Positions 689 through 19,069 of a DNA stretch of 64,000 nucleotides are shown one piece after another. The DNA comes from a virus (lineage: Duplodnaviria > Caudoviricetes), in IMG/VR virus record IMGVR_UViG_3300027749_000034. One strand, 5' to 3'. Position numbers and translations under genes: made by a program. Within the stretch, counting starts at the first letter, position 1, and each line of letters starts with the position of its first letter. The notes under the pieces are model-generated. The model made no database searches. It had not been told where the DNA came from and saw only the letters and a program-made list of their open reading frames with translations.

Positions 689-689
689 C

Positions 690-2141: not shown

Positions 2142-2153
2142 ATCTGTTATAAT
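2125..2153 (+). promoter_or_regulatory. Sigma70-type promoter with extended -10 and an inverted repeat in the spacer
   Basis: TTGCTG(2125-2130)-17 nt-TATAAT(2148-2153) preceded by TGT; AACAGAT-ATAA-ATCTGTT at 2131-2148. Confidence 0.65.
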
Positions 2154-2177
2154 ATTTTGATTGTTCAAAGGAGAAAA

Positions 2178-2794: not shown

Positions 2795-3069
2795 TAGTTA
2801 AAACAGCAATCCAACAACAATGGAATATTGTGTTTCCTAATTCTGGTCCAGGTTATACTGTTTTGGCAATGGTTGACATAGACAACAAAAAGTGGTATAC
2901 TATACATGTGAGCAAGGATATTGCTACTTGGACCAGAACACAATCTCAGGACCAATGGTATGAACATCCTTATGAACAACCTACTCGCTACAATTTTCAT
3001 GAGCCATCATCTGCAAAATTTGATGTACATTGTGAATTGTTAGCAATTTTAAAACTGACATGGGGCTAA
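2791..3069 (+). CDS. Hypothetical protein, same paralog family (divergent)
   Basis: IATWTRTQ...FDVHCELLAILKLTWG. Confidence 0.6.
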   Translation: MIVKTAIQQQWNIVFPNSGPGYTVLAMVDIDNKKWYTIHVSKDIATWTRTQSQDQWYEHPYEQPTRYNFHEPSSAKFDVHCELLAILKLTWG

Positions 3070-3070
3070 T

Positions 3071-3490
3071 ATGAACATTGTTGTACATTCAAAAAGTGCA
3101 GGCAAACAGGCCTTGGTTAACGCAACAGCACATCTTTATAAACAAGAACTTAAAATTTCCAACAGCACTTATACTGTAGAGATTCAGTTTAAGAAAGGTC
3201 TAGCAAATGTTGACGGTATGAAAGGTAGCGTATGTGAGATTGCCCCCAAGCATATTCTAATGCTACTGGATGCGGATTTAAAACAAGAACGACTGTTTGA
3301 GACTCTGGCGCATGAAATGGTTCATGTAAAACAATATGCCAAAGGGCAGTACAAGACCATCCGTACAAAAAGATTTTGGATGGGTAGTCATGTTAAGGCC
3401 GACTACTTTGACCAACCTTGGGAACGAGAGGCAATGAGTAAAGAAAAGTTGCTGGCTGGTAAAGTTTATGCTATACTTGCTAAAGCATGA
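3071..3490 (+). CDS. Zincin-like metallopeptidase
   Basis: TLAHEMVHVKQY (HExxH) plus downstream PWEREA Glu motif. Confidence 0.65.
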   Translation: MNIVVHSKSAGKQALVNATAHLYKQELKISNSTYTVEIQFKKGLANVDGMKGSVCEIAPKHILMLLDADLKQERLFETLAHEMVHVKQYAKGQYKTIRTKRFWMGSHVKADYFDQPWEREAMSKEKLLAGKVYAILAKA

Positions 3491-3711
3491 GAAGTGCGTT
3501 GAGTGGTTGGTATGTGGCCAGTATTATGGCGCCGGTTGACGAAACAGTCAATGGCAAATACCGGTACCAAGGATGGACACCTTGTATTGAATGGTGCAAC
3601 AAACAGTTTGGTGACAAGGTCACTGATGGCTGGAATTTTAAAGGTGACGGCATCTTTGAATTTAGAGAACAAGCAGACTACCTGCTGTTTACGCTGACAT
3701 GGGGTAAATGA
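3487..3711 (+). CDS. Hypothetical protein, same paralog family
   Basis: IEWCNKQFG...FEFREQADYLLFTLTWG. Confidence 0.65.
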   Translation: MRSALSGWYVASIMAPVDETVNGKYRYQGWTPCIEWCNKQFGDKVTDGWNFKGDGIFEFREQADYLLFTLTWGK

Positions 3712-3944
3712 TGTACCAAGAATTTAGCTGGCGCAATGCCAAACATGATTCAATGATAATTGAAATCATGCACCACGGACATGTAGTAATGCATTTCTTC
3801 TTGGGAGAAGGAATGGAAGGTGCAGGGCGTAAGCGAGTAATGGCGCATGTAAGAGAATGCGACAGCAGTACATGGCTCACTGAGTGGCGTGAACATGCCG
3901 AAGAAGAAATGTTACAAAAGTTGAAAGATGATCATAGCCTATAA
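3708..3944 (+). CDS. Hypothetical protein
   Basis: ATGA overlap with upstream gene; 78 aa. Confidence 0.5.
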   Translation: MMYQEFSWRNAKHDSMIIEIMHHGHVVMHFFLGEGMEGAGRKRVMAHVRECDSSTWLTEWREHAEEEMLQKLKDDHSL

Positions 3945-3973
3945 ATGACAGACTTGGATTTAGGAGTTGAAGA

Positions 3974-4171
3974 ATGACAGTAGAAGATTTAGAATATATT
4001 TTTGAATATCAGATAGTAGACGGTACAGAAAAGTTGTACTTTATGCTGATAGACGGTGATCGCTTGCCTATGATTGAGCGGCATCCTGCCGATGATTTGA
4101 AGGGATTGTTACCTATGCTATCAAGTTTTGAATATGCAGGCAATGAAGTCATGCCGAGGTTTAAAAAATGA
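3974..4171 (+). CDS. Hypothetical protein
   Basis: AGGAG RBS upstream; 65 aa. Confidence 0.55.
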   Translation: MTVEDLEYIFEYQIVDGTEKLYFMLIDGDRLPMIERHPADDLKGLLPMLSSFEYAGNEVMPRFKK

Positions 4172-4563
4172 CCGATGACGTTAAAAAACAAGAAGTAATG
4201 GATGCACTACATGAATCTGGTAAAAGTTTTGCCAAGGCGGCCAAAGAATATCAAGACATGTGCCAAACTTACTATTCAGGTCTAGAACCTGAGGAACAGT
4301 TGATGGCATTTTGTGCCATTGTTGAAAAGTTATGTCAAGGTGAATTAGATGAACGGCGTAGTTACCGAGGTGTCTTGTATGGCACCTTTGGTTGGGGACC
4401 AGAAGCCTATGCCGCCGCACAAGGTGCTGGCTACTTGGGATTGCATAATGCTATCTATCGATTTGAAGACCTAGAGCATGTGATGACCAACACTCTCAAA
4501 GAACTTGAAATTGAAGTTGATTCAGAAAAGTTGCGCGATGCACTGGCCAAACACTTCTATTAA
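4168..4563 (+). CDS. Hypothetical protein
   Basis: ATGA overlap; 131 aa, helical. Confidence 0.6.
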   Translation: MTDDVKKQEVMDALHESGKSFAKAAKEYQDMCQTYYSGLEPEEQLMAFCAIVEKLCQGELDERRSYRGVLYGTFGWGPEAYAAAQGAGYLGLHNAIYRFEDLEHVMTNTLKELEIEVDSEKLRDALAKHFY

Positions 4564-4580
4564 AGTAAAATACATACTAC

Positions 4581-7229
4581 ATGTTCATTGACGCATATCA
4601 CGATAAGAAAAAAGAAATCATCCATGTTGTAGAACGAGTGGATGGCAAGAGGGTGCTCAAAGAGTATCCAGCAAAGTATGTCTTGTACTATCCTGACAAC
4701 AAAGGCAAGTTCACTGACATTGCTGGCAACAGAGTCAGCCGAGTGCTTTTGAGCAATGCCACAGCATTTGACAAAGAACGGCGTATTCACAGCAACAAAA
4801 AGTTATGTGAAAGCGACTATAGACCGTTGAATCGATGTCTAGAAGAAATCTATGGCGGTCAAGAAGCACCTAAACTTCATGTTGCATTTTTTGACATTGA
4901 GGTTGCATACGATAAGGTCAAGGGCTTTGCTGATCCCAGTGATCCTTTTAATACCATTACAGCAATCACAGTACACCTGGGGTGGCTAGACAGGACTGTT
5001 ACACTGGTTCTCAAGCCAGATGCAATGCCACAGCCACAGGCTGAGGACATTGTTAAACGATTTGATGATACAATCTTGTGTTCCAATGAAAAAGAAATGT
5101 TGGAAATGTTTCTTGACTTGATTGATGATGCAGATGTAATGAGTGGCTGGAACAGTGAAGGATTTGATATCCCATACACTACAAATCGTATCAGCCGTGT
5201 ACTGAGCAAAGAACAAACACGCAAGTTTTGCTTGTGGGATCAGTTTCCTAAAAAGCGAGAGTTTGAAAAGTATGGCAGAACATTGGAAACTTACGATCCA
5301 ATTGGTCGAGTTCACCTGGACTATCTTGAACTGTATCGCAAGTACAACTATCACGAGATGCATACCTATCGCTTGGATGCCATTGGTGAGTACGAGATTG
5401 GTGAAAAGAAAATACCATATGAAGGCTCATTGGATCAGTTGTACAATAATGATTTTGAAAAGTTTATTGCCTACAACAGACAAGACGTCATCTTGCTTAA
5501 AAAATTAGATGCCAAGTTGCAATTTATTGAACTTACTAATCTTATTAGTCATGCCAATACCGTTGGACTTCGTGCAACATTGGGTGCGGTGGCAGTTACA
5601 GACCAAGCAGTCATCAATGAGGCACATGGTCTAGGTATGGTGGTTCCAGATCGTCCACGGCGCAGTGAAGATGCCAAGGACAATGCCGCGGCAGGTGCGT
5701 ATGTTGCTGTGCCCAAAGCAGGCATGCATGAGTGGATCGGAAGTATGGACATTAACAGTCTGTATCCATCTCTAATTCGTGCGCTGAACATGAGCCCAGA
5801 AACCATTGTTGGTCAAGTTAGACAGACACGCACACTGGCCGGTATTGATGACAGCATTGCTTCTGGTCGGGGTATTGCAGACTTTTGGGATGGCAAGTTT
5901 GCTTGCTACGAGTATGAAAGTGTAATGGCCAGGGACATTGGACAAACTGAAACAGTTGATTGGGCTGATGGAACCAGTACACAAATGAGTTCTGCACAAG
6001 TGTACGATTATGTATTCCTTAGTGGACAACCTTTGATTATCAGTGGCAACGGTACAATCTTTAACTATACCAACAAAGGTATCATACCTGGACTGCTAGA
6101 GCGTTGGTACGCCGAGCGTAAAGAATTACAAAAGAAACTCAAAGAAGCAACGACTCCTGAAGAGGTTGAGTTTTGGGACAAACGGCAGTTGGTTAAGAAA
6201 ATTAACTTGAACTCTGCGTATGGTGCGTTGTTGAATGCAGGTTCGAGGTTCTTTGATCAACGACTAGGACAAAGTACTACCTTATGCGGTCGGCTTGTTG
6301 CCAGACACATGGCAGGAAGTGTCAACGACAGCCTAACTGGAGAGCATGATCACACAGGTAAAGCAATTATCTATGGTGACACTGACTCTGTTTACTTCAG
6401 TGCATATCCCATCTTCAAAGAACAAATTGAGAATGGTCAATTTGAATGGACCAAAGAAAAGATCATTGAACTGTATGATGCAATAAGCGAACAGGTAAAT
6501 GATACCTTTCCGGCATTTATGAATACCGCATTTAATTGTCCACAAGCCCAGGGTGAGATTATCAAAGCAGGTCGAGAACTGGTTGCCAGCAAAGGCATCT
6601 ACATGACCAAGAAGCGTTATGCTGTTCTTATCTTTGACAAGGAAGGCAAGCGCAAAGATACAAATGGATCACTGGGCGAACTGAAAGCCATGGGTCTGGA
6701 CATGAAGCGAGCAGACACTCCAGAGTTCATGCAACGGTTCTTGGAAGAAGCATTGACTATGACCCTGGAAGGTAAAACTGAATATGAGGTCATGGCCCGT
6801 GTCAAACAGTTCCGTGAGGAGTTCAAGAGCAGACCTGGTTGGGAAAAGGGCACCCCCAAGCGTGTGAACAATCTAACTAAACATACTGCTGTTTACGAAA
6901 AGACTGGCAAGTGCGGAGTTGGTCATGCCATGGCGGCCATCAACTGGAATCGATTCAAGCAGGCGCACAGTGACAACCGAAGTATGGAAATAACGGATGG
7001 TCAAAAAGCCATTGTTTGTAAACTGAGATCCAACAACTACAACATAACATCTATTGCTTATCCAATTGACGAATTGAATCTTCCAGATTGGTTTAAGCTA
7101 TTACCATTTGATCATACTGCAATGGAAGAAACCATCATTGACAGTAAGATTGAAAACTTGCTAGGTGTATTACATTGGGACTTGAACCAAAGTAAGGACC
7201 GAGGCTTTATCGATGACTTGTTTTCTTAA
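4581..7229 (+). CDS. DNA polymerase family B (T4 gp43-like) with 3'-5' exonuclease
   Basis: ExoI FFDIE, ExoII GWNSEGFDIPY, ExoIII YNRQD; Pol motifs DINSLYPS, KKINLNSAYG, YGDTDS, KKRYA. Confidence 0.97.
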   Translation: MFIDAYHDKKKEIIHVVERVDGKRVLKEYPAKYVLYYPDNKGKFTDIAGNRVSRVLLSNATAFDKERRIHSNKKLCESDYRPLNRCLEEIYGGQEAPKLHVAFFDIEVAYDKVKGFADPSDPFNTITAITVHLGWLDRTVTLVLKPDAMPQPQAEDIVKRFDDTILCSNEKEMLEMFLDLIDDADVMSGWNSEGFDIPYTTNRISRVLSKEQTRKFCLWDQFPKKREFEKYGRTLETYDPIGRVHLDYLELYRKYNYHEMHTYRLDAIGEYEIGEKKIPYEGSLDQLYNNDFEKFIAYNRQDVILLKKLDAKLQFIELTNLISHANTVGLRATLGAVAVTDQAVINEAHGLGMVVPDRPRRSEDAKDNAAAGAYVAVPKAGMHEWIGSMDINSLYPSLIRALNMSPETIVGQVRQTRTLAGIDDSIASGRGIADFWDGKFACYEYESVMARDIGQTETVDWADGTSTQMSSAQVYDYVFLSGQPLIISGNGTIFNYTNKGIIPGLLERWYAERKELQKKLKEATTPEEVEFWDKRQLVKKINLNSAYGALLNAGSRFFDQRLGQSTTLCGRLVARHMAGSVNDSLTGEHDHTGKAIIYGDTDSVYFSAYPIFKEQIENGQFEWTKEKIIELYDAISEQVNDTFPAFMNTAFNCPQAQGEIIKAGRELVASKGIYMTKKRYAVLIFDKEGKRKDTNGSLGELKAMGLDMKRADTPEFMQRFLEEALTMTLEGKTEYEVMARVKQFREEFKSRPGWEKGTPKRVNNLTKHTAVYEKTGKCGVGHAMAAINWNRFKQAHSDNRSMEITDGQKAIVCKLRSNNYNITSIAYPIDELNLPDWFKLLPFDHTAMEETIIDSKIENLLGVLHWDLNQSKDRGFIDDLFS

Positions 7230-7245
7230 AACGGAGAACAAGCAG

Positions 7246-7274
7246 TTGACTTTAGATCTAAATCTAACTACAAT
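7246..7274 (+). promoter_or_regulatory. Sigma70-type promoter with an inverted repeat in the spacer
   Basis: TTGACT(7246-7251)-17 nt-TACAAT(7269-7274); TTAGAT-CTAA-ATCTAA at 7252-7267. Confidence 0.75.
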
Positions 7275-7294
7275 AGTAACATTAACGGAGAAAC

Positions 7295-8032
7295 ATGACA
7301 ATGCTAAAAGACATTACGCTTGATGTAGCAAAAAACATCGCAGGACTAGGAATCTTTGAAGAGATCCTGGTTGAACAAGAACCAAACAGTACAAAATTTA
7401 CTGCGTATCCGGAAGATTCATTGCTGACTGTACTTGCCAACAGCAAGGACAAGGTCACAGAGTTTCCTGAGGCATGCGGCATGCTTAACTTGGGCTTCTT
7501 TGTTGGCTTGACAAACTTATACAAAGATCCAGATGTTACAAAAAAGTGTAATGTCACAGTTGGATCAAACAACAAAGGTGATGTTGATCGTTTGGCATTC
7601 AACAATGCAGACGGCAACAATGACGAATATCGTTTGACGCCAACTAACCTGATGAAGACCAAGAGTCGTAGTTTTAACGGCACAACTTGGGAAGTAGTTG
7701 TTAGTCCACAAGCAAATAAAATCAGTGAGCTGAGCCAGCGCGGTACATTGTATGCCACCATTGACCCAAATTTAACTGCAAGCACAGAGAATGGCAAGTT
7801 GGTTTTTAGCTTTGGTGGAAGTGCTGGTGGTGGTCATGCAGGTAAGTTTGTATTTGCTGACACTACACAAACCTTGAAGCGTCCAGTATCCTTGTCAATT
7901 CAGGCTTTGTTAACTGCATTTAAAATGTGTAGCCAAGGCACACCGGTGTTGAGCATCAGTGAGCGAGCTACCAAGGTTGAATTTAACAGTGGCTTAATTG
8001 CTTACGAATACATTACTCCAACACAGAAGTAA
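7295..8032 (+). CDS. Probable DNA sliding clamp (gp45/PCNA-like)
   Basis: 245 aa alternating alpha/beta pattern, directly downstream of PolB, size typical of a clamp; no diagnostic motif. Confidence 0.55.
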   Translation: MTMLKDITLDVAKNIAGLGIFEEILVEQEPNSTKFTAYPEDSLLTVLANSKDKVTEFPEACGMLNLGFFVGLTNLYKDPDVTKKCNVTVGSNNKGDVDRLAFNNADGNNDEYRLTPTNLMKTKSRSFNGTTWEVVVSPQANKISELSQRGTLYATIDPNLTASTENGKLVFSFGGSAGGGHAGKFVFADTTQTLKRPVSLSIQALLTAFKMCSQGTPVLSISERATKVEFNSGLIAYEYITPTQK

Positions 8033-8036
8033 GAAT

Positions 8037-9596
8037 ATGCCAAGTAAAAAAAGTAAAGTTGACTTGTGGGCTAAGAATGAAGACTATGCAGTTTTCTTGC
8101 CTAGTATCTCATCTTTTTACAATACCATTATTAGTAAAGAACGAAACGAGCCCGGCGTTAGTGTAAAAGCTGACCGTGTTCCAAAAGAATTTGAAAATGG
8201 TATTGAGGGTATGAACTTCCTTAACAAGGAACAAGCATACTTTTACTATCCTTATGCACTATATTCTGCGGGCCATGCACAGCTGGATCTCAAGAAGACT
8301 GACAAAGAAGAAGCAATGGTTCAACAACGAGATCGCAAGAATACTTTTATTCTAGGCGACTCTGGTGGATTCCAAATTGCAAAAGGTGTCATCAAGTTTG
8401 ACTGGGAAAACTTTATGGAGAAGCCAGGTGATGCTGGCTACAAAGGTTCTGCAGACAAGACTCGCGGCGCAATTTTAAATTGGTTAGAGCATACTGCTGA
8501 CTATTCGATGGTATTGGATATTCCAACCTGGGCGGCACGACCACCACTGAACGAACGCACTGGTCTAAAGTCATTCCAACAATGTTTGGATGGCACACTT
8601 TACAACAATGCATGGTTCTTGGCCAATCGACAAAACAAAACAAAGTTTCTAAATGTGTTACAGGGTAGTAACAATGAAGAAGCAGACATTTGGTACGACA
8701 ATGTTAAACACTTCCCATTTGAAGGTTGGGCAATGGGTGGTAACAACATGCAAGACGCACACTTGGTTCTCCGTAGACTAATTCAAATGCGTGACGAAGG
8801 TATGTTGGCGCCAGGTAAGGATGTCATTCACTTCTTGGGCACAAGTCGTTTAGAATGGACAATTTTCTTAACTGCAATTCAGCGAGCATTGCGAGAACAT
8901 GTCAATCCAAACATGCTAGTAACATATGATTGTGCAAGTCCATTTGTTTCTGTGGCATACGGACTAAGCTATACACAACATGTGCATAGCAATGATCGCT
9001 TTACCTATGTGATGGAAAAGGCTGTGGATAACCGAGACCTAAGTGGATCTAAAATTCCATGGCCTTGGAACAGTCCAATCGGTGAACGCTTGACCATGGG
9101 CGATGTGTGCTATTACAAACCAGGTCAAGAAAATAAAAATGGTAAGGTTTCAAGAACAAGTTGGGACACATTCAGTTATAGTCTTATTATGGGCCATAAT
9201 GTTTACCAACACATTGAAAGTGTACAGCGAGCCAACACACTTGCTGACATTGCACACAAGTTGAATCGTCCAGACCCAGCCGAATGGCGCAAAGGTCGGC
9301 AAAGAAGTCAGGAAGGACAGGTTGACTTATGGGTACCTCGTAATGTATTATACATAATGGAACTAGTAGATCAAGTGTTTAGAGTTGAGAACCCATATGA
9401 ATTGTTAGAACAAAGTTCTGCATTGCTAAGTGAGTTCTCTGGACGCAAGACTCGTAAGAGTGGTGCAGAAGCTGTGCATGATATTTTTACCACTGGTGAT
9501 GGTACCAGTGCAAATGAAATGGCAGAAGGTGGAGAGTTTGATGATATGAACGATCCTAAACTAACTGAACTTGAACAATCGCTTAAGGATGAATGA
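8037..9596 (+). CDS. dpdA: tRNA-guanine transglycosylase-like protein; DNA 7-deazaguanine insertion enzyme (DpdA family)
   Basis: TGT motifs GDSGGFQ, SMVLDIP, NVLQG, WAMGG, IHFLG, TYDCASP; folE and queE nearby; start reassigned to ATG 8037. Confidence 0.85.
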   Translation: MPSKKSKVDLWAKNEDYAVFLPSISSFYNTIISKERNEPGVSVKADRVPKEFENGIEGMNFLNKEQAYFYYPYALYSAGHAQLDLKKTDKEEAMVQQRDRKNTFILGDSGGFQIAKGVIKFDWENFMEKPGDAGYKGSADKTRGAILNWLEHTADYSMVLDIPTWAARPPLNERTGLKSFQQCLDGTLYNNAWFLANRQNKTKFLNVLQGSNNEEADIWYDNVKHFPFEGWAMGGNNMQDAHLVLRRLIQMRDEGMLAPGKDVIHFLGTSRLEWTIFLTAIQRALREHVNPNMLVTYDCASPFVSVAYGLSYTQHVHSNDRFTYVMEKAVDNRDLSGSKIPWPWNSPIGERLTMGDVCYYKPGQENKNGKVSRTSWDTFSYSLIMGHNVYQHIESVQRANTLADIAHKLNRPDPAEWRKGRQRSQEGQVDLWVPRNVLYIMELVDQVFRVENPYELLEQSSALLSEFSGRKTRKSGAEAVHDIFTTGDGTSANEMAEGGEFDDMNDPKLTELEQSLKDE

Positions 9597-10114
9597 TGTC
9601 TATTGATCGCGTTGCACCGGACTTCTTTACTGGCATTGAAGTTGAACACAGCCCTGCACTTGGAATGAATACACTATTTGTAGTTGGTATCCATCCTGGT
9701 GAGGAAATTGTAAAACTTGCCAAAGAGAAAAAGATTGGTCACATTTACATTGGTGCTAATATGAGTCTGCACCATGTGGAAAATGACAATCACGATGTTT
9801 GGCGATCAATTGACGACATGATCAATAAGGTGCTTGAAGATCAGAGTATTCACTATGTCACAGTTGATATACAGCTAAGTCAAGTTGAGGGATTTTTAGA
9901 AAGTATGGCCAGTGACGAACATCGCGTCATTCCAATGATTTCGGCCAAACTACCATACACTAGATTGCTTAACTACAATACAACCGTTAAAATCGACGAT
10001 AAAGGTTTTAACAAAACGAATCCTGGGGTGTGGTGCGTTCCTTTAAGTGACTTAACTGATAGGAAGTATTTTACTCCGTGGATAGCCTACCAAGGCGATA
10101 GCCCTGTTAATTAA
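9593..10114 (+). CDS. Hypothetical protein coupled to dpdA
   Basis: ATGA overlap with the dpdA stop; 173 aa alpha/beta. Confidence 0.65.
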   Translation: MMSIDRVAPDFFTGIEVEHSPALGMNTLFVVGIHPGEEIVKLAKEKKIGHIYIGANMSLHHVENDNHDVWRSIDDMINKVLEDQSIHYVTVDIQLSQVEGFLESMASDEHRVIPMISAKLPYTRLLNYNTTVKIDDKGFNKTNPGVWCVPLSDLTDRKYFTPWIAYQGDSPVN

Positions 10115-10130
10115 ATTTAAGGAAAATGAA

Positions 10131-10352
10131 ATGAACGACGAAGTCAAGGTTGGTAATTTTACTAAACCAATTAAGCGACCAGTTCCAAAAACTGCTGGCG
10201 CACCTGTTAGAGAAGAAGCACCTGAGACAGCTGTAGGTGGAGATGCTGGGATTGCTGATCTTAACAAAAAAATGGACAAGCTTTTAGAATTTGCTCAGGC
10301 AATTGACTGGAAGTTGTGGGTCTACTTAAAAGCAAATAATTACATCGAGTAA
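10131..10352 (+). CDS. Hypothetical protein
   Basis: AAGGA RBS; 73 aa. Confidence 0.6.
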   Translation: MNDEVKVGNFTKPIKRPVPKTAGAPVREEAPETAVGGDAGIADLNKKMDKLLEFAQAIDWKLWVYLKANNYIE

Positions 10353-10361
10353 AGGAATAAC

Positions 10362-10733
10362 ATGTCACAAGACATGATTTGGGTTACCTTTCGTAAGGAA
10401 GGCATTCATAGGTATCCGGCTGCACTTACGGATGCTAAATTGGCAACAGGTGACGAGTATGATGTTTCTTTTTTAGGACATCCTCATCGACACATGTTCC
10501 ACTTTAAAGTGTATCTCGAAGTCTTCCATGACGATAGAGATGTGGAGTTTATTCAGTTCAAGCGTTGGTTGGAGAATTTATATAACCAAGGAACACTTGA
10601 GTTGAATCACAAGTCCTGCGAAATGATGGCAGATGACCTACATGGTCAAATCTCATCAAAGTACACAGATCGTAAAATTTGGATTGAAATTTCGGAGGAT
10701 GGCGAAAATGGATGCCTCAAACAATACTCTTGA
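10362..10733 (+). CDS. QueD-like T-fold protein lacking the catalytic Cys; matches the DpdL-type motif LxxxHRHxF
   Basis: EGIH...FLGHPHRHMF...SCE...EDGENG; LGHPHRHMF instead of QueD CxxxHGH. Confidence 0.7.
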   Translation: MSQDMIWVTFRKEGIHRYPAALTDAKLATGDEYDVSFLGHPHRHMFHFKVYLEVFHDDRDVEFIQFKRWLENLYNQGTLELNHKSCEMMADDLHGQISSKYTDRKIWIEISEDGENGCLKQYS

Positions 10734-11169
10734 CAATCGCGTTCGTTTTGAACGCAAAGATCGCGGAAACTATAATCCGCAGTACCAGGCTCGCCGAGCT
10801 GGACTTAACATCAACCACATCAAGTTTGACTTGCTAAAAATTAGCGAGTTATATGACGGTGTGTTGACAGCAGAGCTAGGGCACTTGCCACTAGCGTTCT
10901 ACAATCAGTATCTTACTGATCTGTGCCATGCTGGTATGATCTATGGTTATGCCATTGACTTGCCAGAAATGCGTAGGCATGAGCCAACAGGTGATCGCAG
11001 TTTCACCTACACTATCAATGTGCAAAGTGCAGTTGATCGTGCAAACAAGGCACTTAAAATCCATGTGGGATTTTATAAGAGTGCATGGGCAGGTGAAACT
11101 GTGCATACCGAAGATGGTATGTGCTGTATGCCTAATCGCTTGGATCGCGATGAGGTAGTAAATGCGTAA
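10708..11169 (+). CDS. Hypothetical protein in the deazaguanine cluster
   Basis: GGAGG RBS at 10694-10698 supports ATG 10708; overlaps both neighbours. Confidence 0.55.
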   Translation: MDASNNTLDNRVRFERKDRGNYNPQYQARRAGLNINHIKFDLLKISELYDGVLTAELGHLPLAFYNQYLTDLCHAGMIYGYAIDLPEMRRHEPTGDRSFTYTINVQSAVDRANKALKIHVGFYKSAWAGETVHTEDGMCCMPNRLDRDEVVNA

Positions 11170-12340
11170 GCTCTTTTATATGGGCTTGGAGCCCTATGAA
11201 GGAAGATACACCCTTCAACTCCAGCAATGGAATGAAGCGGTGTTCAAACGCCGGGGCATTGACTATGTGTTAGTACCCGGCAGTACCATTGACAATACCA
11301 AAGCAATCAGTGTTGGTCAAGTGTTAGACGCACATGGTCGCAGTTACTTTGGTATGAGCCAGATGATGAATCTGGTGCAGATGATGCGCCGTGGTGATGT
11401 CACCAGTGAAGATGTCATCTACTTTGAAGACATGTTTCAACCCGGCATTGAAAGCTTGCCTTACATTCTAGATCAAGTGCCTGCCAACTTGCGACCACGC
11501 ATATATGTTCGTTGTCTGGCCCAGGCCATTGACCCAGATGACTTTGTGCATGTATGGGGTATGAGCAAATGGATGAGTACATATGAACAAATGGTCAATT
11601 GTTTTGTCACAGGTGTACTTGCTACAAATGAAGAGATGGTTGCCCATATGCGTATTGCTAATTGGACTGCTCCTATCTATAACATTAGCGGTCTAGCATA
11701 TGGCAAAGAAGAAGTTCTTGGCCGAGTTAATAATAAAGTTAAGTCCTGGTCTGAAAGAGCTCATCGTGTTGTATTTGCCGCAAGGTTTGACCAAGAGAAG
11801 CAACCAGACTTCTTTATGGATCTCATTGAGAAGTGGCATGCCGAACAACCTGACAATCCAGTTGAGTTTGCTGTATTAAGTGGTGGACCATTGCGTAGTA
11901 ACAATCCCAAATACTTAGAGCGTGCCTATAAAATGGCGGCACAGGGAAAACTCAAGATTTATGAGGACCTTAATAAAAATGAGTACTATAATATTGTCAA
12001 CGATAGTCGTGTGCTGTTTAATTGTGCTTTACAAGACTGGGTTTCAAACACCGTCAGCGAGGCCGACACTCTTGGCTGTAATGTTTTGTATCCTGCTTAT
12101 CGTAGTTTTCCAGAAACATTCGCCAATGATCATACCAGACTATATGTTCCTTGGTCGTTAGATGATGCCATACAAAAACTTCGAGTTCAGTTATCTGGTG
12201 TTCATGTCAATCAAGGCAAGATTAGTGATTGGAACAATGGCACTATCGACCGTGTGCTAGATATCATGCAAGGCACAGGTGAACAATGGAATCGGGCCGG
12301 TAACAGATATCGTGACCATATTGCAGAGGCAAAGTACTAA
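11162..12340 (+). CDS. Glycosyltransferase, GT-B fold (GT4-like)
   Basis: C-terminal VVFAARFDQEKQPD...YYNIVNDSRVLFNCALQDWVSNTVSEADTLGC...PETF pattern. Confidence 0.75.
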   Translation: MRKLFYMGLEPYEGRYTLQLQQWNEAVFKRRGIDYVLVPGSTIDNTKAISVGQVLDAHGRSYFGMSQMMNLVQMMRRGDVTSEDVIYFEDMFQPGIESLPYILDQVPANLRPRIYVRCLAQAIDPDDFVHVWGMSKWMSTYEQMVNCFVTGVLATNEEMVAHMRIANWTAPIYNISGLAYGKEEVLGRVNNKVKSWSERAHRVVFAARFDQEKQPDFFMDLIEKWHAEQPDNPVEFAVLSGGPLRSNNPKYLERAYKMAAQGKLKIYEDLNKNEYYNIVNDSRVLFNCALQDWVSNTVSEADTLGCNVLYPAYRSFPETFANDHTRLYVPWSLDDAIQKLRVQLSGVHVNQGKISDWNNGTIDRVLDIMQGTGEQWNRAGNRYRDHIAEAKY

Positions 12341-13329
12341 TGGAAAAATGGGTAGCTATAACAGGGTGTAATGGTTACATTGGTGGGCAGACTGTTTTAA
12401 AATTCAAAGATGCTGGTTACAATGTCATTGGTGTAGACCGCAACAATACTGCTCCTTGGATTACAGAAAGAGTCGATCGTTATATCAACGGTGACTTTAA
12501 CAATCCAATGTTTACCAGTTTGATTATACAAAACAATCCTGTTGCATTGATACACATTGCCGGAACCAGTCTAGTGGGACCAAGCATACAAGATCCAGCA
12601 CCCTATTATTTAAATAATGTTGGTAATACTGCCAACATGTTGGGAATGTTGGCTCGCAATGGCTGGAACAAGACTGTGGTCTTCTCAGGTAGTGCCGCCA
12701 TCTATGGAAACCCCGGAGCCCATTCTATCACAGAAGAAACTCCTCGACTTCCAATCAGTCCATATGGACACAGTAAACTTATGGCAGAGCAGGTATTAAG
12801 AGATTGTGCATTTGGATATGGATTCAAAACTATATCGTTGCGATACTTCAATGCTTGTGGTGCAGACAACATGGTCAGGCATGGTCAATTGAAAAAGGCA
12901 ACGCACCTAATTGCTAAAATTATGGAAAGTATTGTCAACCAAGATGTGTTTACTTTAAACGGCACAAACTATTCTACTCCCGACGGTACTTGCATTAGAG
13001 ACTATTTGCATGTTGAAGATATTGCCAATGCTCATTACCTGTCAACCATGTATGCAGAAACCATGGAAGTACCCAGTGTTGAGTTTAATCTAGGAACTGG
13101 TAAAGGTGTTAGCATTAGAGAAATTATTTCCAGTGTTGAACGCATTACTGGAAAAACTGTTTTGGTACATACTGGCGGTGCAAGAGCCGGCGATCCTGAA
13201 GTACTGGTTGCAAGTTCTAACAAAATTAAAATGCAAATGGGATGGGTACCAGAGAACAGCAAGATTGATAATATTGTGCGTAGTGCATGGGATTGGTACA
13301 ACTCAGTAGAATTTAAGAGTCGAGCATGA
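12340..13329 (+). CDS. galE: UDP-glucose 4-epimerase
   Basis: GCNGYIG Rossmann motif, PYGHSK (YxxxK), LRYFNACGA, DGTCIRDYLHVED. Confidence 0.9.
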   Translation: MEKWVAITGCNGYIGGQTVLKFKDAGYNVIGVDRNNTAPWITERVDRYINGDFNNPMFTSLIIQNNPVALIHIAGTSLVGPSIQDPAPYYLNNVGNTANMLGMLARNGWNKTVVFSGSAAIYGNPGAHSITEETPRLPISPYGHSKLMAEQVLRDCAFGYGFKTISLRYFNACGADNMVRHGQLKKATHLIAKIMESIVNQDVFTLNGTNYSTPDGTCIRDYLHVEDIANAHYLSTMYAETMEVPSVEFNLGTGKGVSIREIISSVERITGKTVLVHTGGARAGDPEVLVASSNKIKMQMGWVPENSKIDNIVRSAWDWYNSVEFKSRA

Positions 13330-13754
13330 AAGTAGGTTTCACTTGTTCAACCTTTGATTTGCTACATGCTGGCCATGTTTCCATGTTACAAGAAGCAAAG
13401 ACCAAATGCGACTACTTAATTTGTGGATTGCAAAATGATCCAACGCTGGATCGTGTCACAAAGAATAAACCTGTACAGACCATTGTAGAACGACAGATGC
13501 AACTCAAAGGCAGTCGTTATGTTGACGAAGTGTGGGTCTACAACACAGAAAAAGATCTAGAAGATCTACTATTAACATTACCTATTAATGTGCGTATACT
13601 AGGAGTTGAATATGAAAACAAAGAATTCACTGGTAGAGAAATTTGTCACAAGCGTAATATTGATCTATATTTTAATGGTCGTGATCACAGTTTTAGTTCA
13701 AGCAGTTTAAGAAAACGAGTGTACGAGGCACAGATACAAAAGGAACAACAATGA
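13326..13754 (+). CDS. HIGH-family cytidylyltransferase (glycerol-3-phosphate cytidylyltransferase TagD-like)
   Basis: TFDLLHAGH, LICGLQND, KPVQ...ER, RDHSFSSS. Confidence 0.85.
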   Translation: MKVGFTCSTFDLLHAGHVSMLQEAKTKCDYLICGLQNDPTLDRVTKNKPVQTIVERQMQLKGSRYVDEVWVYNTEKDLEDLLLTLPINVRILGVEYENKEFTGREICHKRNIDLYFNGRDHSFSSSSLRKRVYEAQIQKEQQ

Positions 13755-14188
13755 AAATCAATGAATTAGAGAATGGCATCACAGATGCTTGGTTTAAACA
13801 AGGTGGCTTTGAAACATTCAAAAAACCAATTCCGGTGCCGTATACCATTGCCAATAGTGACGGAGTCACACAAACATTGGAAGGTCCAGTAGAGCACAAG
13901 GCAGGACATTACATCATGGGTCCGGGTCCTAAGAAAGAATTTTGGCCGTTGGAACCTGAAAATTTTCATGATAAGTACGATGACAATGGTGACGGTACAG
14001 GAACTCCCAAGGGCGGTGTAACTAAATTGGCCAAGTTAGCAGATCACAATGGTGTCATCAAAGCCACATGGGGTGACTTGAACTATACCACAGGCAATGA
14101 CTATATTGTACGGCATGGTCCAAACGACTACGGTGTGGTAAAGAAAGATATCTTTGCTCAAACTTACGATACATCACAGGAAAAATAA
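13751..14188 (+). CDS. PGDYG-like protein with two internal repeats
   Basis: Repeat 1 TLEG...AGHYIM...WPL...F..KYD; repeat 2 ATWG...GNDYIV...GVV...F..TYD. Confidence 0.55.
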   Translation: MKINELENGITDAWFKQGGFETFKKPIPVPYTIANSDGVTQTLEGPVEHKAGHYIMGPGPKKEFWPLEPENFHDKYDDNGDGTGTPKGGVTKLAKLADHNGVIKATWGDLNYTTGNDYIVRHGPNDYGVVKKDIFAQTYDTSQEK

Positions 14189-14433
14189 TGGAAATTACAA
14201 TTTACAGCAAACAACCTTGTCCCTACTGCGACATGGCAAAGAATTGGTTTAAGAGTAAAAATCTTACATACACTGAACACAAGGTTGGTACCAATGGATT
14301 CACTCGCGAAATGCTAATGGAAGCAGTACCTACCGCTAGAACTGTTCCTCAGATTATCATTGATGGTAAGTTAATCGGTGGCTGGGATGACTTGCGTAAC
14401 AGTGAGTTCTATGCCAACGCAAACCAAGGATAA
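14188..14433 (+). CDS. Glutaredoxin
   Basis: CPYC active site, RTVPQI, IGGWDD. Confidence 0.92.
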   Translation: MEITIYSKQPCPYCDMAKNWFKSKNLTYTEHKVGTNGFTREMLMEAVPTARTVPQIIIDGKLIGGWDDLRNSEFYANANQG

Positions 14434-14692
14434 AGTTTATTCGGCCAAGACTGCCAGCCATGTGTTTATACTAAAAAACATTAGGCGGTGGTTAATTGCT
14501 AATTGCAAGAACAGATGGTCTGCTACAGATTACAAAGGTGATCCATTTAATTGGCGCAAGTTGGCAAAGATTGAGTCAGCCAAGTATTCAAATGAAATGT
14601 TTGACATTACAATCATGGTACATTTTAAGAAGCCCGAAGATCTAATGCTTTATCTTTTAACTTGGCCAAGCGAGGTCTTGCTCATTGACTAA
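14411..14692 (+). CDS. Hypothetical protein, same paralog family as the 1.3-3.7 kb ORFs
   Basis: RRWLIANCK...HFKKPEDLMLYLLTWP; start reassigned to ATG 14411. Confidence 0.55.
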   Translation: MPTQTKDKVYSAKTASHVFILKNIRRWLIANCKNRWSATDYKGDPFNWRKLAKIESAKYSNEMFDITIMVHFKKPEDLMLYLLTWPSEVLLID

Positions 14693-14706
14693 CTATCTGT
14701 TATAAT
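14678..14706 (+). promoter_or_regulatory. Sigma70-type promoter (extended -10) for folE
   Basis: TTGCTC(14678-14683)-17 nt-TATAAT(14701-14706) preceded by TGT. Confidence 0.6.
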
Positions 14707-14732
14707 ACAACACAACCTAAAGAAAATTAAAC

Positions 14733-15470
14733 ATGAACGAACCTGTAACATTTAATAACATAGACGACAAGGGCTATGAAGAAGCCAATCTAGCAGATGT
14801 GATTCGATTCAAGATGAAGCGAGATAACAAACGCTTCTGGGCAGGCGATAACATTAGCGAATATGTAACTGACGAACATAAAGAAATCTTAATCAAAGAG
14901 GCCGCAGAAGCATTTGAAACAGTGCTAGACAGTTTGTTAATTGACAGAGAAACAGATCCCAACAGCAAAGGTACTGCTAAACGATTAGCTAAAATGTATT
15001 TTAATGAAGTAATGGCAGGTAGATATGAACCATCCCCAGATGCAACAGCTTTTCCAAATGATAGTGACGACCGCTACGAAGGTATGTTGGTCGTGCGTAG
15101 CGAACTTCGTAGTATGTGTAGTCATCATCACCAACCCGTTTCTGGTGTTGCCTATATTGGCATTATTGCCGCTAATAAACTTATTGGCCTATCAAAGTAT
15201 ACACGGATCGCCCAGTGGTGTGCCCGACGTGGTACTCTCCAGGAGGAACTTTGTAATGATATTGCTCGGGAAATTAGCAAAGCAACAGGCGCAACAGACT
15301 TAGGCGTATACATTCAAGCCACTCACGGATGCTGTGAAAATCGCGGCATCATGGCACACTCCAGTCTTACACAGACTACTGTGCTCAAAGGTGCCTTTAA
15401 GGACGACCAAAGTACAAAGAAAGAATTCTTTGATAACATTAAAATGCAACAAGAATTTGCTCCACGGTGA
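14733..15470 (+). CDS. folE: GTP cyclohydrolase I
   Basis: SMCSHHHQP, GLSKYTR, LQEEL, HGCCENRG. Confidence 0.95.
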   Translation: MNEPVTFNNIDDKGYEEANLADVIRFKMKRDNKRFWAGDNISEYVTDEHKEILIKEAAEAFETVLDSLLIDRETDPNSKGTAKRLAKMYFNEVMAGRYEPSPDATAFPNDSDDRYEGMLVVRSELRSMCSHHHQPVSGVAYIGIIAANKLIGLSKYTRIAQWCARRGTLQEELCNDIAREISKATGATDLGVYIQATHGCCENRGIMAHSSLTQTTVLKGAFKDDQSTKKEFFDNIKMQQEFAPR

Positions 15471-15473
15471 ACT

Positions 15474-15995
15474 ATGGACAATGACTCAAAAAACAAATTG
15501 AAAGACGTACTGTCTACTATAGATCCTGTTGAGTTCAAATGGGACGAGACCAATACAACTGTTGGCGGCAAAAATGCACAGGATGTTTCTACCATCACTC
15601 TTTCCGGAGACCTGTATGATATTGGTATGAATACCATGGGCAGTATCGACCTAACCAACATTGGACTCAGTAACGGCATTACAACAATTGGTGGATCAGG
15701 AGCAGGCTTTACTATAGCAGGAAACTTGTCAGCAGGAAATATCAGTTACAATACCAGTGCTTCAATTCTTTCTGCAGACACCACTGAGTATGGTAAGACT
15801 ACAATCAAAACTGCCAAGAACACAATTGACTTAGATGAGCTGGCTGATATGATGGAAACATTGAAGAAGCGGTTGCTGATCATAGCACCTAACTTTGAAA
15901 TGCATGAAAAATATCCCATGCTCAAGGAAATGTACAACGAGTACAAAGCAATGGAAAAACTATTAGGCGGCCCAGAATCGTCGGAAGAAAAATAA
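15474..15995 (+). CDS. Hypothetical protein (Thr/Gly-rich low-complexity middle, helical C-terminus)
   Basis: 173 aa, in operon. Confidence 0.6.
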   Translation: MDNDSKNKLKDVLSTIDPVEFKWDETNTTVGGKNAQDVSTITLSGDLYDIGMNTMGSIDLTNIGLSNGITTIGGSGAGFTIAGNLSAGNISYNTSASILSADTTEYGKTTIKTAKNTIDLDELADMMETLKKRLLIIAPNFEMHEKYPMLKEMYNEYKAMEKLLGGPESSEEK

Positions 15996-16513
15996 TGTTA
16001 AAAAAATGTTCATTGTCCTGGGGCGACATAGAGTATCTGGCCCATACCATTGTCCGTGATATCAATGTGAGTGGTTGGCGGCCTGATATTATCATTGGCA
16101 TTGATCGTGGCGGATTAATTCTCAGTAACATGCTCAGTCATTACTTAGAGATTCCACATACCAGTGTCAAAGTGTCGTTGAGAGATTTTGAAGACACCGA
16201 ATCGTTGTTATGGGCACCAGAAGAAGTGTTGGCTGGCAAGAAAATATTACTGGTAGATGACATAAATGATTCGGGTGCAACTCAAGCATGGCTTAAAGAA
16301 GATTGGGCCAGTTCTGTGGCCGGTGTAGAGCCAGATTTCGTCGACAAGCATTGGCATAAATCAGTTCGTTTGGCCGTTTTGGTTGACAATGAGGCTAGCG
16401 ACCAGTATACTGACTATTGTGGTATGATTGTTAACAAAGTTGAAAAAGATGTATGGATCGACTTCCCGTGGGAGTCTTGGTGGACAAGGAGCACATATGA
16501 AAGTGGGATTTAG
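15995..16513 (+). CDS. Purine phosphoribosyltransferase-like (type I PRTase)
   Basis: GIDRGG loop, PRPP-binding LLVDDINDSGAT, WIDFPWE. Confidence 0.85.
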   Translation: MLKKCSLSWGDIEYLAHTIVRDINVSGWRPDIIIGIDRGGLILSNMLSHYLEIPHTSVKVSLRDFEDTESLLWAPEEVLAGKKILLVDDINDSGATQAWLKEDWASSVAGVEPDFVDKHWHKSVRLAVLVDNEASDQYTDYCGMIVNKVEKDVWIDFPWESWWTRSTYESGI

Positions 16514-16910
16514 TCTAGGCCGTTGTATCCGTGACATTGTTACAGATGTTGTTGATATCAACGATGTTGTGGTTATTGTGTCTGGTACACGATTTGAAAC
16601 ACAGGAACAACTGGTTCCTATCATCAATGAATACATGTATCGCTCTGGATATTTAGAAGGATTAGACGAAACAGCCTGCCAAGGTGTGGCCAGTGTGCTG
16701 TTCCGAGAAGGAAAGATACATCAACCTCGTAACTTTGGTACATATAGAAGTATGATGCCAGAAAATGCTGTATGGGCAGACTTGTTTCCTACCGGTGGAC
16801 ATGAAGATCCAATGGTGCAAGAAGCTTGGCAGACATATAGAGGTATGTTGGGGTTAACTGGTAACCGGCCCAACAACAAAGAACGCATCGAATCTAATTG
16901 GAAGATATAA
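16497..16910 (+). CDS. Hypothetical protein
   Basis: AAGGAG precedes ATG 16497 ([15 protein letters not shown]). Confidence 0.6.
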
Positions 16911-16911
16911 A

Positions 16912-17235
16912 ATGACTTATGTAGTAACTGAAAGTTGCGTCAAATGCAAGTATACTGATTGTGTCGATGTATGCCCTGTTGATTGTTTTAAAGAAGGACC
17001 AAACTTTCTTGTCATTGATCCTGACGAATGTATTGACTGTGGTGTTTGTATTCCTGAATGTCCAGTAGATGCTATCGTTGCAGATCGAGATATGACAGAA
17101 GAACAAAAACCTTGGCTACCAATCAACATTGAACTTAGCAAAATTTGGCCAGTGATTAATAAAAGCAAGGCCCCACTTGATACTGCTGAAGAATTTAAAG
17201 ATGTCAAGGATAAAAAGGATTTGTTAGAGAGATGA
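16912..17235 (+). CDS. fdxA: 7Fe ferredoxin (Azotobacter FdI / FdxA type)
   Basis: [42 protein letters not shown]. Confidence 0.92.
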
Positions 17236-17999
17236 ATTTAGAAACATTTGCTTCTCTGATCAGACTGTATGATTGTCCGCGACTCAATGAAAAATACAAA
17301 GGTATTATTTCATTGCCGTTGGCATTGCCAAAATTTGAATTAGACAATGCTGATGAATTTTGGAAGATTTGGGATTCGCAGAACGAAACAGTACATCGAC
17401 AACATATTGACCGTGGCGCGGTTGGAAAAGATCCTGCTAAAGTATCAAAGTTATATACTCAATGGGATGGGTTGGCACTATACGAAGACAAGTCATTGCT
17501 TGATCAAGCGGCATGGCGGACAACAGTATCTAAAGAATTAGCAGATTCTCAACCAACTTATCTTAAATCAATTTTAGGAATATTACCGTTTACAAAAGTT
17601 AGATCCATCCGATTATGGAGCAACCATAAAGTTATTCCAGCACACTATGATGGCAATCTCCCATCAAGTATAGATGGTAAAATGCGATTTCCAACTGAGA
17701 TCCGTTTGATGTTGCATGATGAAAATCCAATTGAAACATTCTACTTGACACTAGCAAATAAATATCCTCCGCACACAGACATTCCACTGCATGATCGATA
17801 CTATGTAAAATTACCAAATGATACTAATACATTTGCATGGAACAATGAAGACTACTTACATGGAGCAGACTTTAATCCAAAGTATAAAAAAATACTTGTT
17901 GTGATCAAAGGATGGGTTCACTTGGGACGATTAGAAAAGTTGCTAGATGCAAGCATAGAAAAATATCCAGATTTTATATTAAGAGAGAAAAATGACTAA
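17232..17999 (+). CDS. Possible Fe(II)/2-oxoglutarate oxygenase (DSBH fold)
   Basis: PAHYDG (HxD) and distal LHGAD, with R/K near the C-terminus; otherwise unrecognised. Confidence 0.45.
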
Positions 18000-18786
18000 A
18001 GTTATCATACAGGGCCAAGGTACAGTTGGCCAATCAACTGAAATGTTTTTGAGAACATTTGTTCCTGAGATTGAGATTGAATTCAATGATCCAGGCAAGG
18101 ATGTTGTTGCTGACCCGAGTAGTTGGGCAGTGGCCGACTATGTCATTGTTTGTGTCAATACAGATTTGAATGATTCGGAAATATTGCCCGAGAATGATAC
18201 ATCATGCGTTGATGCGGCAATCAACGAAGCATTACAAAATGAATTCAGAGGGAAAATCATTGTAAGAAGTACCATTGGTGTAGAGTCTGCTGTAAAATTA
18301 GAAAAACAGTTAGGGCAAAATTTAATTATTTGGCCAGAATACATTCGTGAAGCCACTTGGAAAGAAGATAGTGTTAATCCAACAATGGTTGTCATTGGTG
18401 GTGAGGCCACAGAAGAATTTGCAAATGTGATCAGCCTGTATAAGGGAACACTATTAATAACTGATGCGGTTGAAGCAATGATTGCCAAGTTAAGCACAAA
18501 CACATTCTTGGCAATGAAAGTTATCTTTGCCAATCAAGTAAGACAACTGTGCGAGAAAAATGCGGCTTCATATGAGATAGTACAACAGCTACTACAATCA
18601 GAGGGTCGACTTGGATCAAGTCATTGGCAAAGTCCTGGTCCAGATGGGCAAGCCGGATATGGCGGCAAATGCTTTCCTAAAGATGTCAGGACTTTTGAAG
18701 CGGCCCTGGTCAAGTCTGGAATACATGTTGACTTGATCCGTGCTATCAGTGACCTCAATAGAGAAATGCGACCTAATGGCAACTAA
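17992..18786 (+). CDS. UDP-glucose/GDP-mannose dehydrogenase family (short phage form)
   Basis: GQGTVG Rossmann motif, CVNT, RSTI, PEYIRE, AKLSTNTFLAMKV, GYGGKCFPKD. Confidence 0.85.
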   Translation: MTKVIIQGQGTVGQSTEMFLRTFVPEIEIEFNDPGKDVVADPSSWAVADYVIVCVNTDLNDSEILPENDTSCVDAAINEALQNEFRGKIIVRSTIGVESAVKLEKQLGQNLIIWPEYIREATWKEDSVNPTMVVIGGEATEEFANVISLYKGTLLITDAVEAMIAKLSTNTFLAMKVIFANQVRQLCEKNAASYEIVQQLLQSEGRLGSSHWQSPGPDGQAGYGGKCFPKDVRTFEAALVKSGIHVDLIRAISDLNREMRPNGN

Positions 18787-19069
18787 CGATTGGGACTCAA
18801 TTAAAAAAGCATTGCGGTCCATGGGCGATATTGAAAAACATTCGCTTGACACACAGTGGTTAATATGCTACAATGATGGTACTAGGAAACTTGTATTAGA
18901 TCACAATCACGACAACTTAGAAGAGATTTTACAAGCATTTTCAGATTTCTGCAAAGGTGCTGGATTTATCTTTGATGGTTTCGCTATTGTGGACGAAGAT
19001 GGTATTCCAGTTAACGGATTAAACTCTATAGCAAAGCTCGAGGACGATGATGAAGATAAAGCTGGTTAG
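18776..19069 (+). CDS. Hypothetical acidic protein
   Basis: In-operon ORF; start reassigned to ATG 18776. Confidence 0.5.
   Translation: MATNDWDSIKKALRSMGDIEKHSLDTQWLICYNDGTRKLVLDHNHDNLEEILQAFSDFCKGAGFIFDGFAIVDEDGIPVNGLNSIAKLEDDDEDKAG

Follow-up and report, generated by a model that had tools for sequence, protein, structure and literature searches.

The alpha- and beta-glucosyltransferases of phage T4 and the base J glucosyltransferase are nucleotide-sugar enzymes dedicated to a non-canonical DNA base, and the T4 enzymes have the GT-B fold. QTMAN/GTDC1 is a GT4 glycosyltransferase (GT) that mannosylates queuosine in animal tRNA, so that a nucleic acid receives a sugar on a derivative of 7-deazaguanine. 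To our knowledge, the deazaguanine bases known in DNA are all small and sugar-free, and the known glycosylated DNA bases are all pyrimidines. The 64,000-nt stretch of virus record IMGVR_UViG_3300027749_000034 (hereafter the window) is part of the genome of an uncultured jumbo phage akin to Pseudomonas phage PA5oct and carries, behind a family B DNA polymerase (PolB) gene, a run of genes (8037-13754, + strand) that includes a DpdA-type DNA transglycosylase, a DpdL-type protein, a GT and the hexose epimerase GalE. The chances are even that this operon represents a module for 7-deazaguanine modification of DNA into which a glycosylation step is built. Deazaguanine modification itself is known; the deazaguanine DNA-modification system with a dedicated GT is new. 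A sugar-linked deazaguanine in DNA had been put forward as a possible undescribed base in the initial annotation, and indeed no report of such a base, nor of this GT family, was found in the literature. The T4 and base J enzymes act on a pyrimidine hydroxymethyl, whereas the acceptor here would be a purine analogue without a known hydroxyl, and the fold of the GT is nearest to MshA and BshA. The acceptor of QTMAN/GTDC1 is the cyclopentenediol of queuosine, a group that the predicted phage base does not have.

DpdL was defined by Cui, Hutinet et al. by the signature LxxxHRHxF as a paralogue of QueD, with decarboxylation of 7-carboxy-7-deazaguanine (CDG) proposed as its function, not shown (PMC10516641). 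The DNA of phage phiST contains plain 2'-deoxy-7-deazaguanine (dDG) at 100% of G (PMC10516641). The phiST system and the system described here share FolE, QueD and QueE without QueC, DpdL with the LxxxHRHxF motif, the position next to replication genes (PMC10516641), and a highly divergent transglycosylase of the tRNA-guanine transglycosylase (TGT) superfamily that is undetected by Pfam. They differ in that the phiST transglycosylase is a small DpdA3 (about 260 aa) and a P-loop kinase-like gene is present there, with no GT, no GalE and no counterpart of h173, the conserved partner protein of the module. A hidden Markov model (HMM) of the phiST-type DpdA3 gave no match in loci L094-L173, in the loci L174-L179 from metagenome-assembled genomes (MAGs), or in loci L134, L138, L139, L142, and L180-L182; the window was not among the loci scanned.

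Pseudomonas phage PA5oct (Wroclawvirus) shares synteny with the window around gp316-gp318, namely PolB, a clamp, a DpdA-like protein (38% identical), GT gp317, DpdL-like gp318 (51%), a phosphoribosyltransferase (PRTase), QueE, and RNase H. In PA5oct, unlike in the window, the GT is located between DpdA and DpdL, the DpdL motif is HFH and not HRH, and a 172-aa fragment of a short-chain dehydrogenase/reductase (SDR) is present instead of GalE. There is no h173 homolog in the region, and all these PA5oct genes are annotated as hypothetical. The DNA of PA5oct resists enzymes with G-containing sites and is a target of END nucleases, which recognize hypermodified DNA (PMC12191111). Nothing beyond PMC10516641 and PMC12191111 was found in the literature on DpdL follow-ups and on the chemistry of PA5oct DNA.

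The linkage of the GT (11162-12340, + strand) with deazaguanine genes was analysed in four sets. The close set comprised 80 IMG/VR loci fetched through the GT (73-94% identity), the divergent set 80 GT loci with 22-46% identity to PA5oct gp317, the reverse set loci fetched through DpdA (46-100% identity), 42 of them with enough flank, and the cellular set one genome per species from 185,579 species. DpdL was present in 77/80 close loci, DpdA in 75/80, h173 in 72/80, GalE in 75/80, and FolE in 65/80, with PolB-clamp-DpdA-h173-DpdL-GT-GalE-FolE as the consensus order. A deazaguanine gene was found within 8 kb of the GT in 74 of the 80 divergent loci, and GT together with DpdL in all 42 loci of the reverse set. 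The cellular set gave six GT matches, all on MAG contigs and five of them with DpdL adjacent; the GT family is essentially phage-only. The arrangement recurs in hundreds of viral contigs, far beyond chance. GT homologs are not equally common without dpdA, a pattern that the initial annotation had named as evidence against its idea; loci with the GT but without DpdL, DpdA, QueE or FolE nearby are very rare. The linkage sets support a dedicated role of the GT in a module for 7-deazaguanine modification of DNA, and it is very probable that the GT works in the deazaguanine pathway.

Two exceptions of the divergent set were recognized. One locus has DpdL elsewhere on the contig. The other, L138 (IMGVR_UViG_3300032038_000064), is a complete 71-kb phage with PolA, in which an h173 homolog, the GT, a 298-aa protein with the motif FIDSGAFS, and a YhhQ-type PF02592 transporter are coded in a row (7552-10664), and no FolE, QueD, QueE or DpdL was found on its contig. 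Members of the PF02592/YhhQ family are known importers of preQ0/preQ1, and the GT module of this phage apparently uses a deazaguanine base taken up from outside. In Vibrio phage 2.275.O._10N.286.54.E11 (6908-12339), which has neither DpdL nor GT, a large DpdA of the window type (596 aa) is accompanied by QueF, a QueC-like gene, an amidohydrolase, and a YhhQ-type transporter. The large DpdA type was therefore rejected as the feature that the GT tracks, and the GT follows DpdL instead; by its company of QueF, QueC, and YhhQ in this phage, the window-type DpdA clade also serves a preQ1-type pathway.

When GenBank phages were searched by tblastn, the window GT found only BUCT-ZZ01 (72% identical), ACP17, BUDD, and X1, and PA5oct gp317 added eleven PA5oct-like records, Phosso, and BCSR5. 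In the PA5oct-like phages, ACP17, BUDD/X1, BCSR5, Phosso, and BUCT-ZZ01, the GT is never more than a few genes away from DpdL, and the gene orders differ. The order is DpdA-GT-DpdL in PA5oct, h173-DpdA-GT-DpdL-QueE in ACP17, PP-loop-x-x-GT-DpdA-DpdL-QueE in BUDD/X1, FolE-GT2-DpdA-DpdL-GT in BUCT-ZZ01, and DpdL-GT in Phosso, with DpdA elsewhere in the genome. DpdL was found in 28 phage records, which were grouped into 14 lineages. The lineages fall into two cleanly separated groups. Eight combine the GT with a large DpdA. In the other six (phiST, Ahp1, D479, Bakedbeans, MA9V-3, and RHph_I1_18), a small DpdA3 is present, a P-loop kinase-like gene is usual, and no GT was found less than 8 kb from DpdL. 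The P-loop kinase-like gene, annotated as AAA_18 or dNMP kinase, stands at the place of the GT in phiST-type clusters (L088:8299-8796, L092:9540-10085, L091:9301-9870). Synechococcus phage BUCT-ZZ01 encodes a second GT-B protein (UTS52035, 9010-10350; Glyco_trans_1_4, E 3e-5) directly upstream of its DpdA-type gene, and the two GTs of this cluster could mean two sugars.

The AlphaFold2 (AF2) model of the GT (predicted local distance difference test, pLDDT, 75) has a GT-B fold of two Rossmann domains, and the protein was classified as a GT4-like enzyme of the retaining type that represents a deazaguanine-linked family. MshA, BshA, PimA, and GlgM were the nearest structures in Foldseek (E 2e-9 to 5e-8, TM about 0.6), and BshA, ALG2, MshA, and PimA were the structural matches in AFDB Swiss-Prot, where GTDC1 was not among the top 30. 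PF00534 (Glycos_transf_1) matches all seven GT lineages compared (best E 6.8e-12), the window GT alone being below the cut-off with E 1.3e-3. Residues R208, K213, and D292-x7-E300 are conserved in the window GT. Three elements are invariant in all seven of these distant lineages: the Arg, E-K-x-P, and the second Glu within the EX7E-type motif, whose first acidic residue is Asp in the window's clade. A family-specific N-terminal motif, ExxExRYT, is invariant as well. As judged from sequence, the residues for binding of a nucleoside diphosphate (NDP) sugar and for catalysis in retaining GT4 enzymes are kept, and the donor site is predicted to be intact.

In 37 relatives, the median identity to the window was 83% for FolE, 76% for the GT, and 70% for DpdL, versus 58% for PolB, 45.5% for GalE, 44.5% for h173, and 44% for DpdA. 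These values suggest that the GT is under unusually strong constraint or moves as a cassette, and the 72% identity between the window GT and that of a T4-like cyanophage speaks for some transfer. An outgroup GT4 was found in 227-kb Xanthomonas/Erwinia jumbo phages (PhiXhv-12, 5735-8969; PhiXhv-15 and -16, Ep026, and Ep032), beside GlmS and an LmbE/BshB-type deacetylase and with no deazaguanine genes nearby. It is without the N-terminal ExxExRYT and scores 99 bits versus 240-500 bits for family members, and the absence of the motif and the low score mark the boundary of the GT family. The context of the outgroup is possibly a different amino-sugar pathway.

The gene at 8037-9596 (+ strand) encodes a 519-aa protein with no sequence match in Pfam, PHROG, NCBIfam or, by phmmer, PDB; the curated PF01702/NCBIfam models matched neither this protein nor 42 representatives of its family. 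Since sequence models gave nothing, it was identified through fold and profile comparison. The AF2 model computed from 21 homologs (pLDDT 81) shows the TIM-barrel fold of TGTs, had TGTs as all of its top 50 Foldseek matches (E 4e-8, prob 1.0) and was aligned to TGT in VIA-align with Z 19.2 over 300 residues and a root-mean-square deviation of 4.3. Homologs fall into 933 representative clusters (phmmer, full 50% library). With the profile of the 42 representatives, 31 of 32 PDB matches were TGTs, at weak E-values (about 1.2) that alone are not significant. This profile aligns GDSGGFQ, LDxPT, LNVLQG, and EGWAxGG onto the TGT motifs round D102, D156, Q203, and G229/230. Across the representatives D108, S109, and G111 never vary, and D161 hardly does. 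The invariant D298 in SYDxASPF aligns with SYDSTT of the ACP17, BUDD, and BUCT DpdA proteins, TGT D280 itself not being in the alignment, and no CxCxxC motif (Zn site) was seen. In hhalign, the profile matched the DpdA-type proteins of ACP17 (97%), BUDD (96%, annotated as queuine tRNA-ribosyltransferase), and BUCT-ZZ01 (94.5%). The protein was classified as a divergent TGT-fold DNA transglycosylase, a large DpdA related to DpdA3-type proteins, and the earlier dpdA call, made from a motif alone, was right at the level of fold and family. By fold, motifs, and family it would swap guanine in phage DNA for a deazaguanine, and the resistance of PA5oct DNA at G-containing restriction sites (PMC12191111) lends this indirect support. 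A DpdA-like protein with 24% identity over residues 101-357 was also found in Pseudomonas phage vB_PpuM-Voja-6 (6869-8239) and eight relatives, with no deazaguanine synthesis gene within 7 kb.

The T-fold protein coded at 10362-10733 (+ strand; phrog_17812, E 2e-32) carries FLGHPHRHMF, that is, the LxxxHRHxF signature of DpdL in place of the QueD-type CxxxHGH, and was classified as a DpdL-type QueD paralogue and proposed CDG decarboxylase. It is 31% identical to DpdL of phiST (tblastn, E 9e-7). H16, H42, H44, and S85-C86-E87 are invariant in an alignment of 11 DpdL lineages. In Vibrio phage Bakedbeans (7179-8360) and Chryseobacterium phage MA9V-3 (7407-8309), DpdL is the C-terminal part of larger frames of 394 and 301 codons, respectively, counted stop to stop.

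Two genes for deazaguanine synthesis were predicted in the window, both on the + strand. GTP cyclohydrolase I FolE is coded at 14733-15470 (PF01227, E 6e-39), and QueE, a radical S-adenosylmethionine 7-carboxy-7-deazaguanine synthase, at 20610-21479, where several NCBIfam QueE models gave E 1e-8 to 1e-10, all under their cut-offs. This QueE is 45% identical to that of BUCT-ZZ01 and 31% identical to that of PA5oct. QueD was not found in the window with an HMM built from phage QueDs, and neither was QueC; the complete 350-kb relatives have QueD and no QueC.

The partner protein h173 (9593-10114, + strand) was found in 42/80 divergent and 40/42 DpdA-sampled loci, in addition to the close set, and in ACP17 (ASD50402), and is directly upstream of the GT in L138, L139, and L142. 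No match for h173 was obtained in Pfam (E <= 10), NCBIfam, PHROGs, the PDB profile search, or the Atlas. A relationship to QueE was rejected (hhalign probability 0.15%). This protein probably belongs to the same step as the GT.

UDP-hexose 4-epimerase GalE (12340-13329, + strand) passes the TIGR01179 equivalog cut-off (297.4 bits vs 262.3) and has both GCNGYIG (GxxGxxG) and Y142xxxK146 (YxxxK). It is directly downstream of the GT in 75 of the 80 close loci and in 19/80 divergent loci, almost all of the same GT clade. No GalE was found near the GT in ACP17, BUDD, BCSR5, Phosso, or BUCT-ZZ01, and the SDR fragment of PA5oct lies at this place. The initial annotation had listed GalE and a cytidylyltransferase in one run with dpdA and the GT, and a UDP-sugar dehydrogenase within the next 8 kb. 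As general parts of the module they did not hold up, as GalE is limited to the window's GT clade, and the other two are accessories of a sub-lineage (21/80 and 15/80 close loci).

The following pathway is proposed. FolE and QueE would make CDG, with QueD supplied from elsewhere in the genome, as in the complete relatives, or by the host. The DpdL-type protein would turn CDG into the base to be inserted, 7-deazaguanine if the published proposal of decarboxylation applies, and the divergent TGT-fold DpdA would exchange that base for guanine in phage DNA. The GT, with its family-specific acceptor domain, would move a hexose onto the deazaguanine, either as the free base before insertion or as the base in DNA. 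Because GalE directly follows the GT in the window's clade, the donor there is probably a UDP-hexose of which the C4 epimer is required (UDP-Gal/Glc type). The sugar could be joined to the electron-rich pyrrole ring as a C-glycoside, to CDG through an ester, or at another position, or could depend on a handle-making step, for which h173 would be the only conserved candidate. An unusual linkage (C-glycoside, acyl glycoside) is possible because the predicted core base has no C7 hydroxyl. Whether mature virion DNA carries a sugar-bearing deazaguanine is evenly balanced. That a large, mostly uncultured phage group, together with the PA5oct-like phages, ACP17, BUDD/X1, BCSR5, Phosso, and BUCT-ZZ01, carries a glycosylated 7-deazaguanine in DNA, made by the phage-specific GT4-like enzyme with DpdL, large DpdA, and h173, is held a little short of even.

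Several observations weigh against a sugar on the finished base. The acceptor is the weak point, as 7-deazaguanine, the predicted DpdL product, has no C7 hydroxyl or amine, and the only oxygenase candidate (17232-17999), which might provide a prior hydroxylation, is present in 10 close relatives only. The linkage of GalE to the GT is confined to the window's clade. The GT family is acidic (pI 5.4-6.2) and gives no hint of DNA binding, neither T4-type DNA glucosyltransferases nor the base J enzyme were among the top 50 structural matches of the GT, and PF12038 (QTMAN_N) did not match the seven GT lineages at E <= 0.1. The DpdL decarboxylase and the DpdA3-type activity were not reproduced in the E. 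coli tests of their authors, and GT-type phages are absent from the nucleoside tables of the same paper (PMC10516641).

The strongest competing explanation, although unlikely, is that plain deazaguanine cannot be made or inserted without the GT, which would either form a short-lived glycosyl or activated intermediate or assist the large DpdA as a partner without catalysis, and that the finished DNA is sugar-free. The missing acceptor atom of 7-deazaguanine fits this explanation, and dpdA and dpdL of ACP17, between which the GT of that phage lies, gave no dDG in E. coli, so that other enzymes were suggested by the authors to be required (PMC10516641). The P-loop kinase-like gene at the GT's place in phiST-type clusters points in the same direction, as both could be activating enzymes. 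However, phiST reaches its full dDG content without any GT (PMC10516641), two GTs are coded in the cluster of BUCT-ZZ01, nearly the whole close set (75/80) has a dedicated GalE behind the GT, and the NDP-sugar-binding and catalytic residues are invariant in seven distant lineages.

It is still less probable that the GT acts on a small soluble product of these same enzymes, for instance a pterin, a deazapurine base in free form, or a deazapurine nucleotide from the linked PRTase, and that the glycosylated compound is not put in DNA. Pterins, too, are made by FolE and T-fold enzymes, and their glycosides occur in cyanobacteria; the closest structural matches of the GT, MshA and BshA, act on small molecules, and the GT is acidic. 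The PRTase recurs in 21/80 close and 33/80 divergent loci (54/160) and also in PA5oct and BUCT-ZZ01. Against such a role, the GT accompanies DpdA no less strictly than DpdL (42/42) and is coded in a replication module behind polymerase and clamp, L138 has the GT with only a transporter and a DpdA-like protein and no synthesis genes, and the DNA of PA5oct is modified at G (PMC12191111). Synthesis of a host-envelope or virion glycan by the GT, GalE, nucleotidyltransferase, and dehydrogenase, with an accidental position in the operon, is very improbable, since the GT-DpdL linkage survives many rearrangements and unrelated phage types, and the outgroup GT of Xanthomonas jumbo phages, which has GlmS and an LmbE-type deacetylase but no deazaguanine genes and would favour it along with the sub-lineage character of the nucleotidyltransferase and dehydrogenase-like genes, falls outside the family by motif and score.

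If glycosylation of a deazaguanine in DNA is correct, it would be the first case of a sugar on a purine analogue in DNA and a new class of DNA hypermodification, with a bearing on restriction, CRISPR, and glycosylase-based defence. It would also bear on the sequencing of such phages and on the choice of therapeutic phages; PA5oct-like viruses infect P. aeruginosa and laboratories already have them. The GT family and h173, which occur in very large numbers in viral metagenomes under the label 'hypothetical', would receive a function, and the question is directly testable in cultured phages.

The + strand from 4581 to about 23800 forms one replication-type module. All genes named in the initial annotation are present on this strand with matching coordinates. 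The module is headed by PolB (4581-7229; PF00136, E 3e-38; PF03104, E 1e-17), about 50% identical to the DNA polymerase of PA5oct. A probable sliding clamp follows (7295-8032; phrog_12062, E 6e-22), which was placed by BLASTP in a cluster with PA5oct gp314 and Phosso XYS97379 ('sliding clamp beta'); it has no Pfam match, and its name is taken from its position and the annotation of the homolog. Ten open reading frames (ORFs) come next, with intergenic spacing of -101 to +16 nt from the clamp-like gene to 14433. No convincing internal terminator was found; a consensus scan gave 11 sites vs 14.5 expected in shuffles, and the terminator/promoter scan was uninformative. By its spacing, the region is compatible with one transcription unit. 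Two of its + strand ORFs have no family match. One (10131-10352, 73 aa) is limited to a sub-lineage (14/80 close loci), and the other (10633-11169, 178 aa as listed) was found in 17/80 close and 7/80 divergent loci. The latter overlaps DpdL by 101 nt, and its true start is probably later.

The remaining recurrent and accessory genes are also on the + strand. An HxGH nucleotidyltransferase (13326-13754; HAGH; PF01467, CTP_transf_like, E 2e-11; phrog_7878) is cytidylyl/adenylyltransferase-like, with RfaE domain II and TagD models scoring under their cut-offs, and was found in 21/80 close and 0/80 divergent loci. The type I PRTase (15995-16513; PF00156, E 1.5e-13) has homologs in BUCT-ZZ01, annotated as XGPRT, and in PA5oct (gp321). 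A 2x[4Fe-4S] ferredoxin (16912-17235; Fer4 families, DUF3470; 21/80 close loci) is a possible reductant for QueE. The candidate 2-oxoglutarate-Fe(II)/AspH-like oxygenase (17232-17999; 10/80 close loci) has no Pfam match and was recognized by Atlas links to P4H/Asp-Asn hydroxylase-like clusters (features 0.94-0.96, structure TM 0.60-0.64); as a general handle maker it was rejected, being confined to the 10 close relatives. The short UDP-sugar dehydrogenase-like protein (17992-18786, 264 aa; PF00984, E 2e-17; PF03721, E 3e-7) keeps GxGxxG and the catalytic-Cys motif GGKCFPKD. No C-terminal UDP-binding domain was detected in it, and the next ORF (18740-19069) has no family match. The nucleotidyltransferase, dehydrogenase-like gene, ferredoxin, and oxygenase candidate are all sub-lineage accessories, the first two being absent from other lineages. 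A MazG-like pyrophosphohydrolase is coded at 20267-20617 (PF03819, E 1e-5).

The 22-kb viral contig IMGVR_UViG_3300027785_001710 is a close relative from another genome, with 86-93% nt identity to positions 236-17120 of the window. The minus-strand half of the window contains an ORF of 3702 codons (48328-59436) and then one of 1073 codons (59439-62660).

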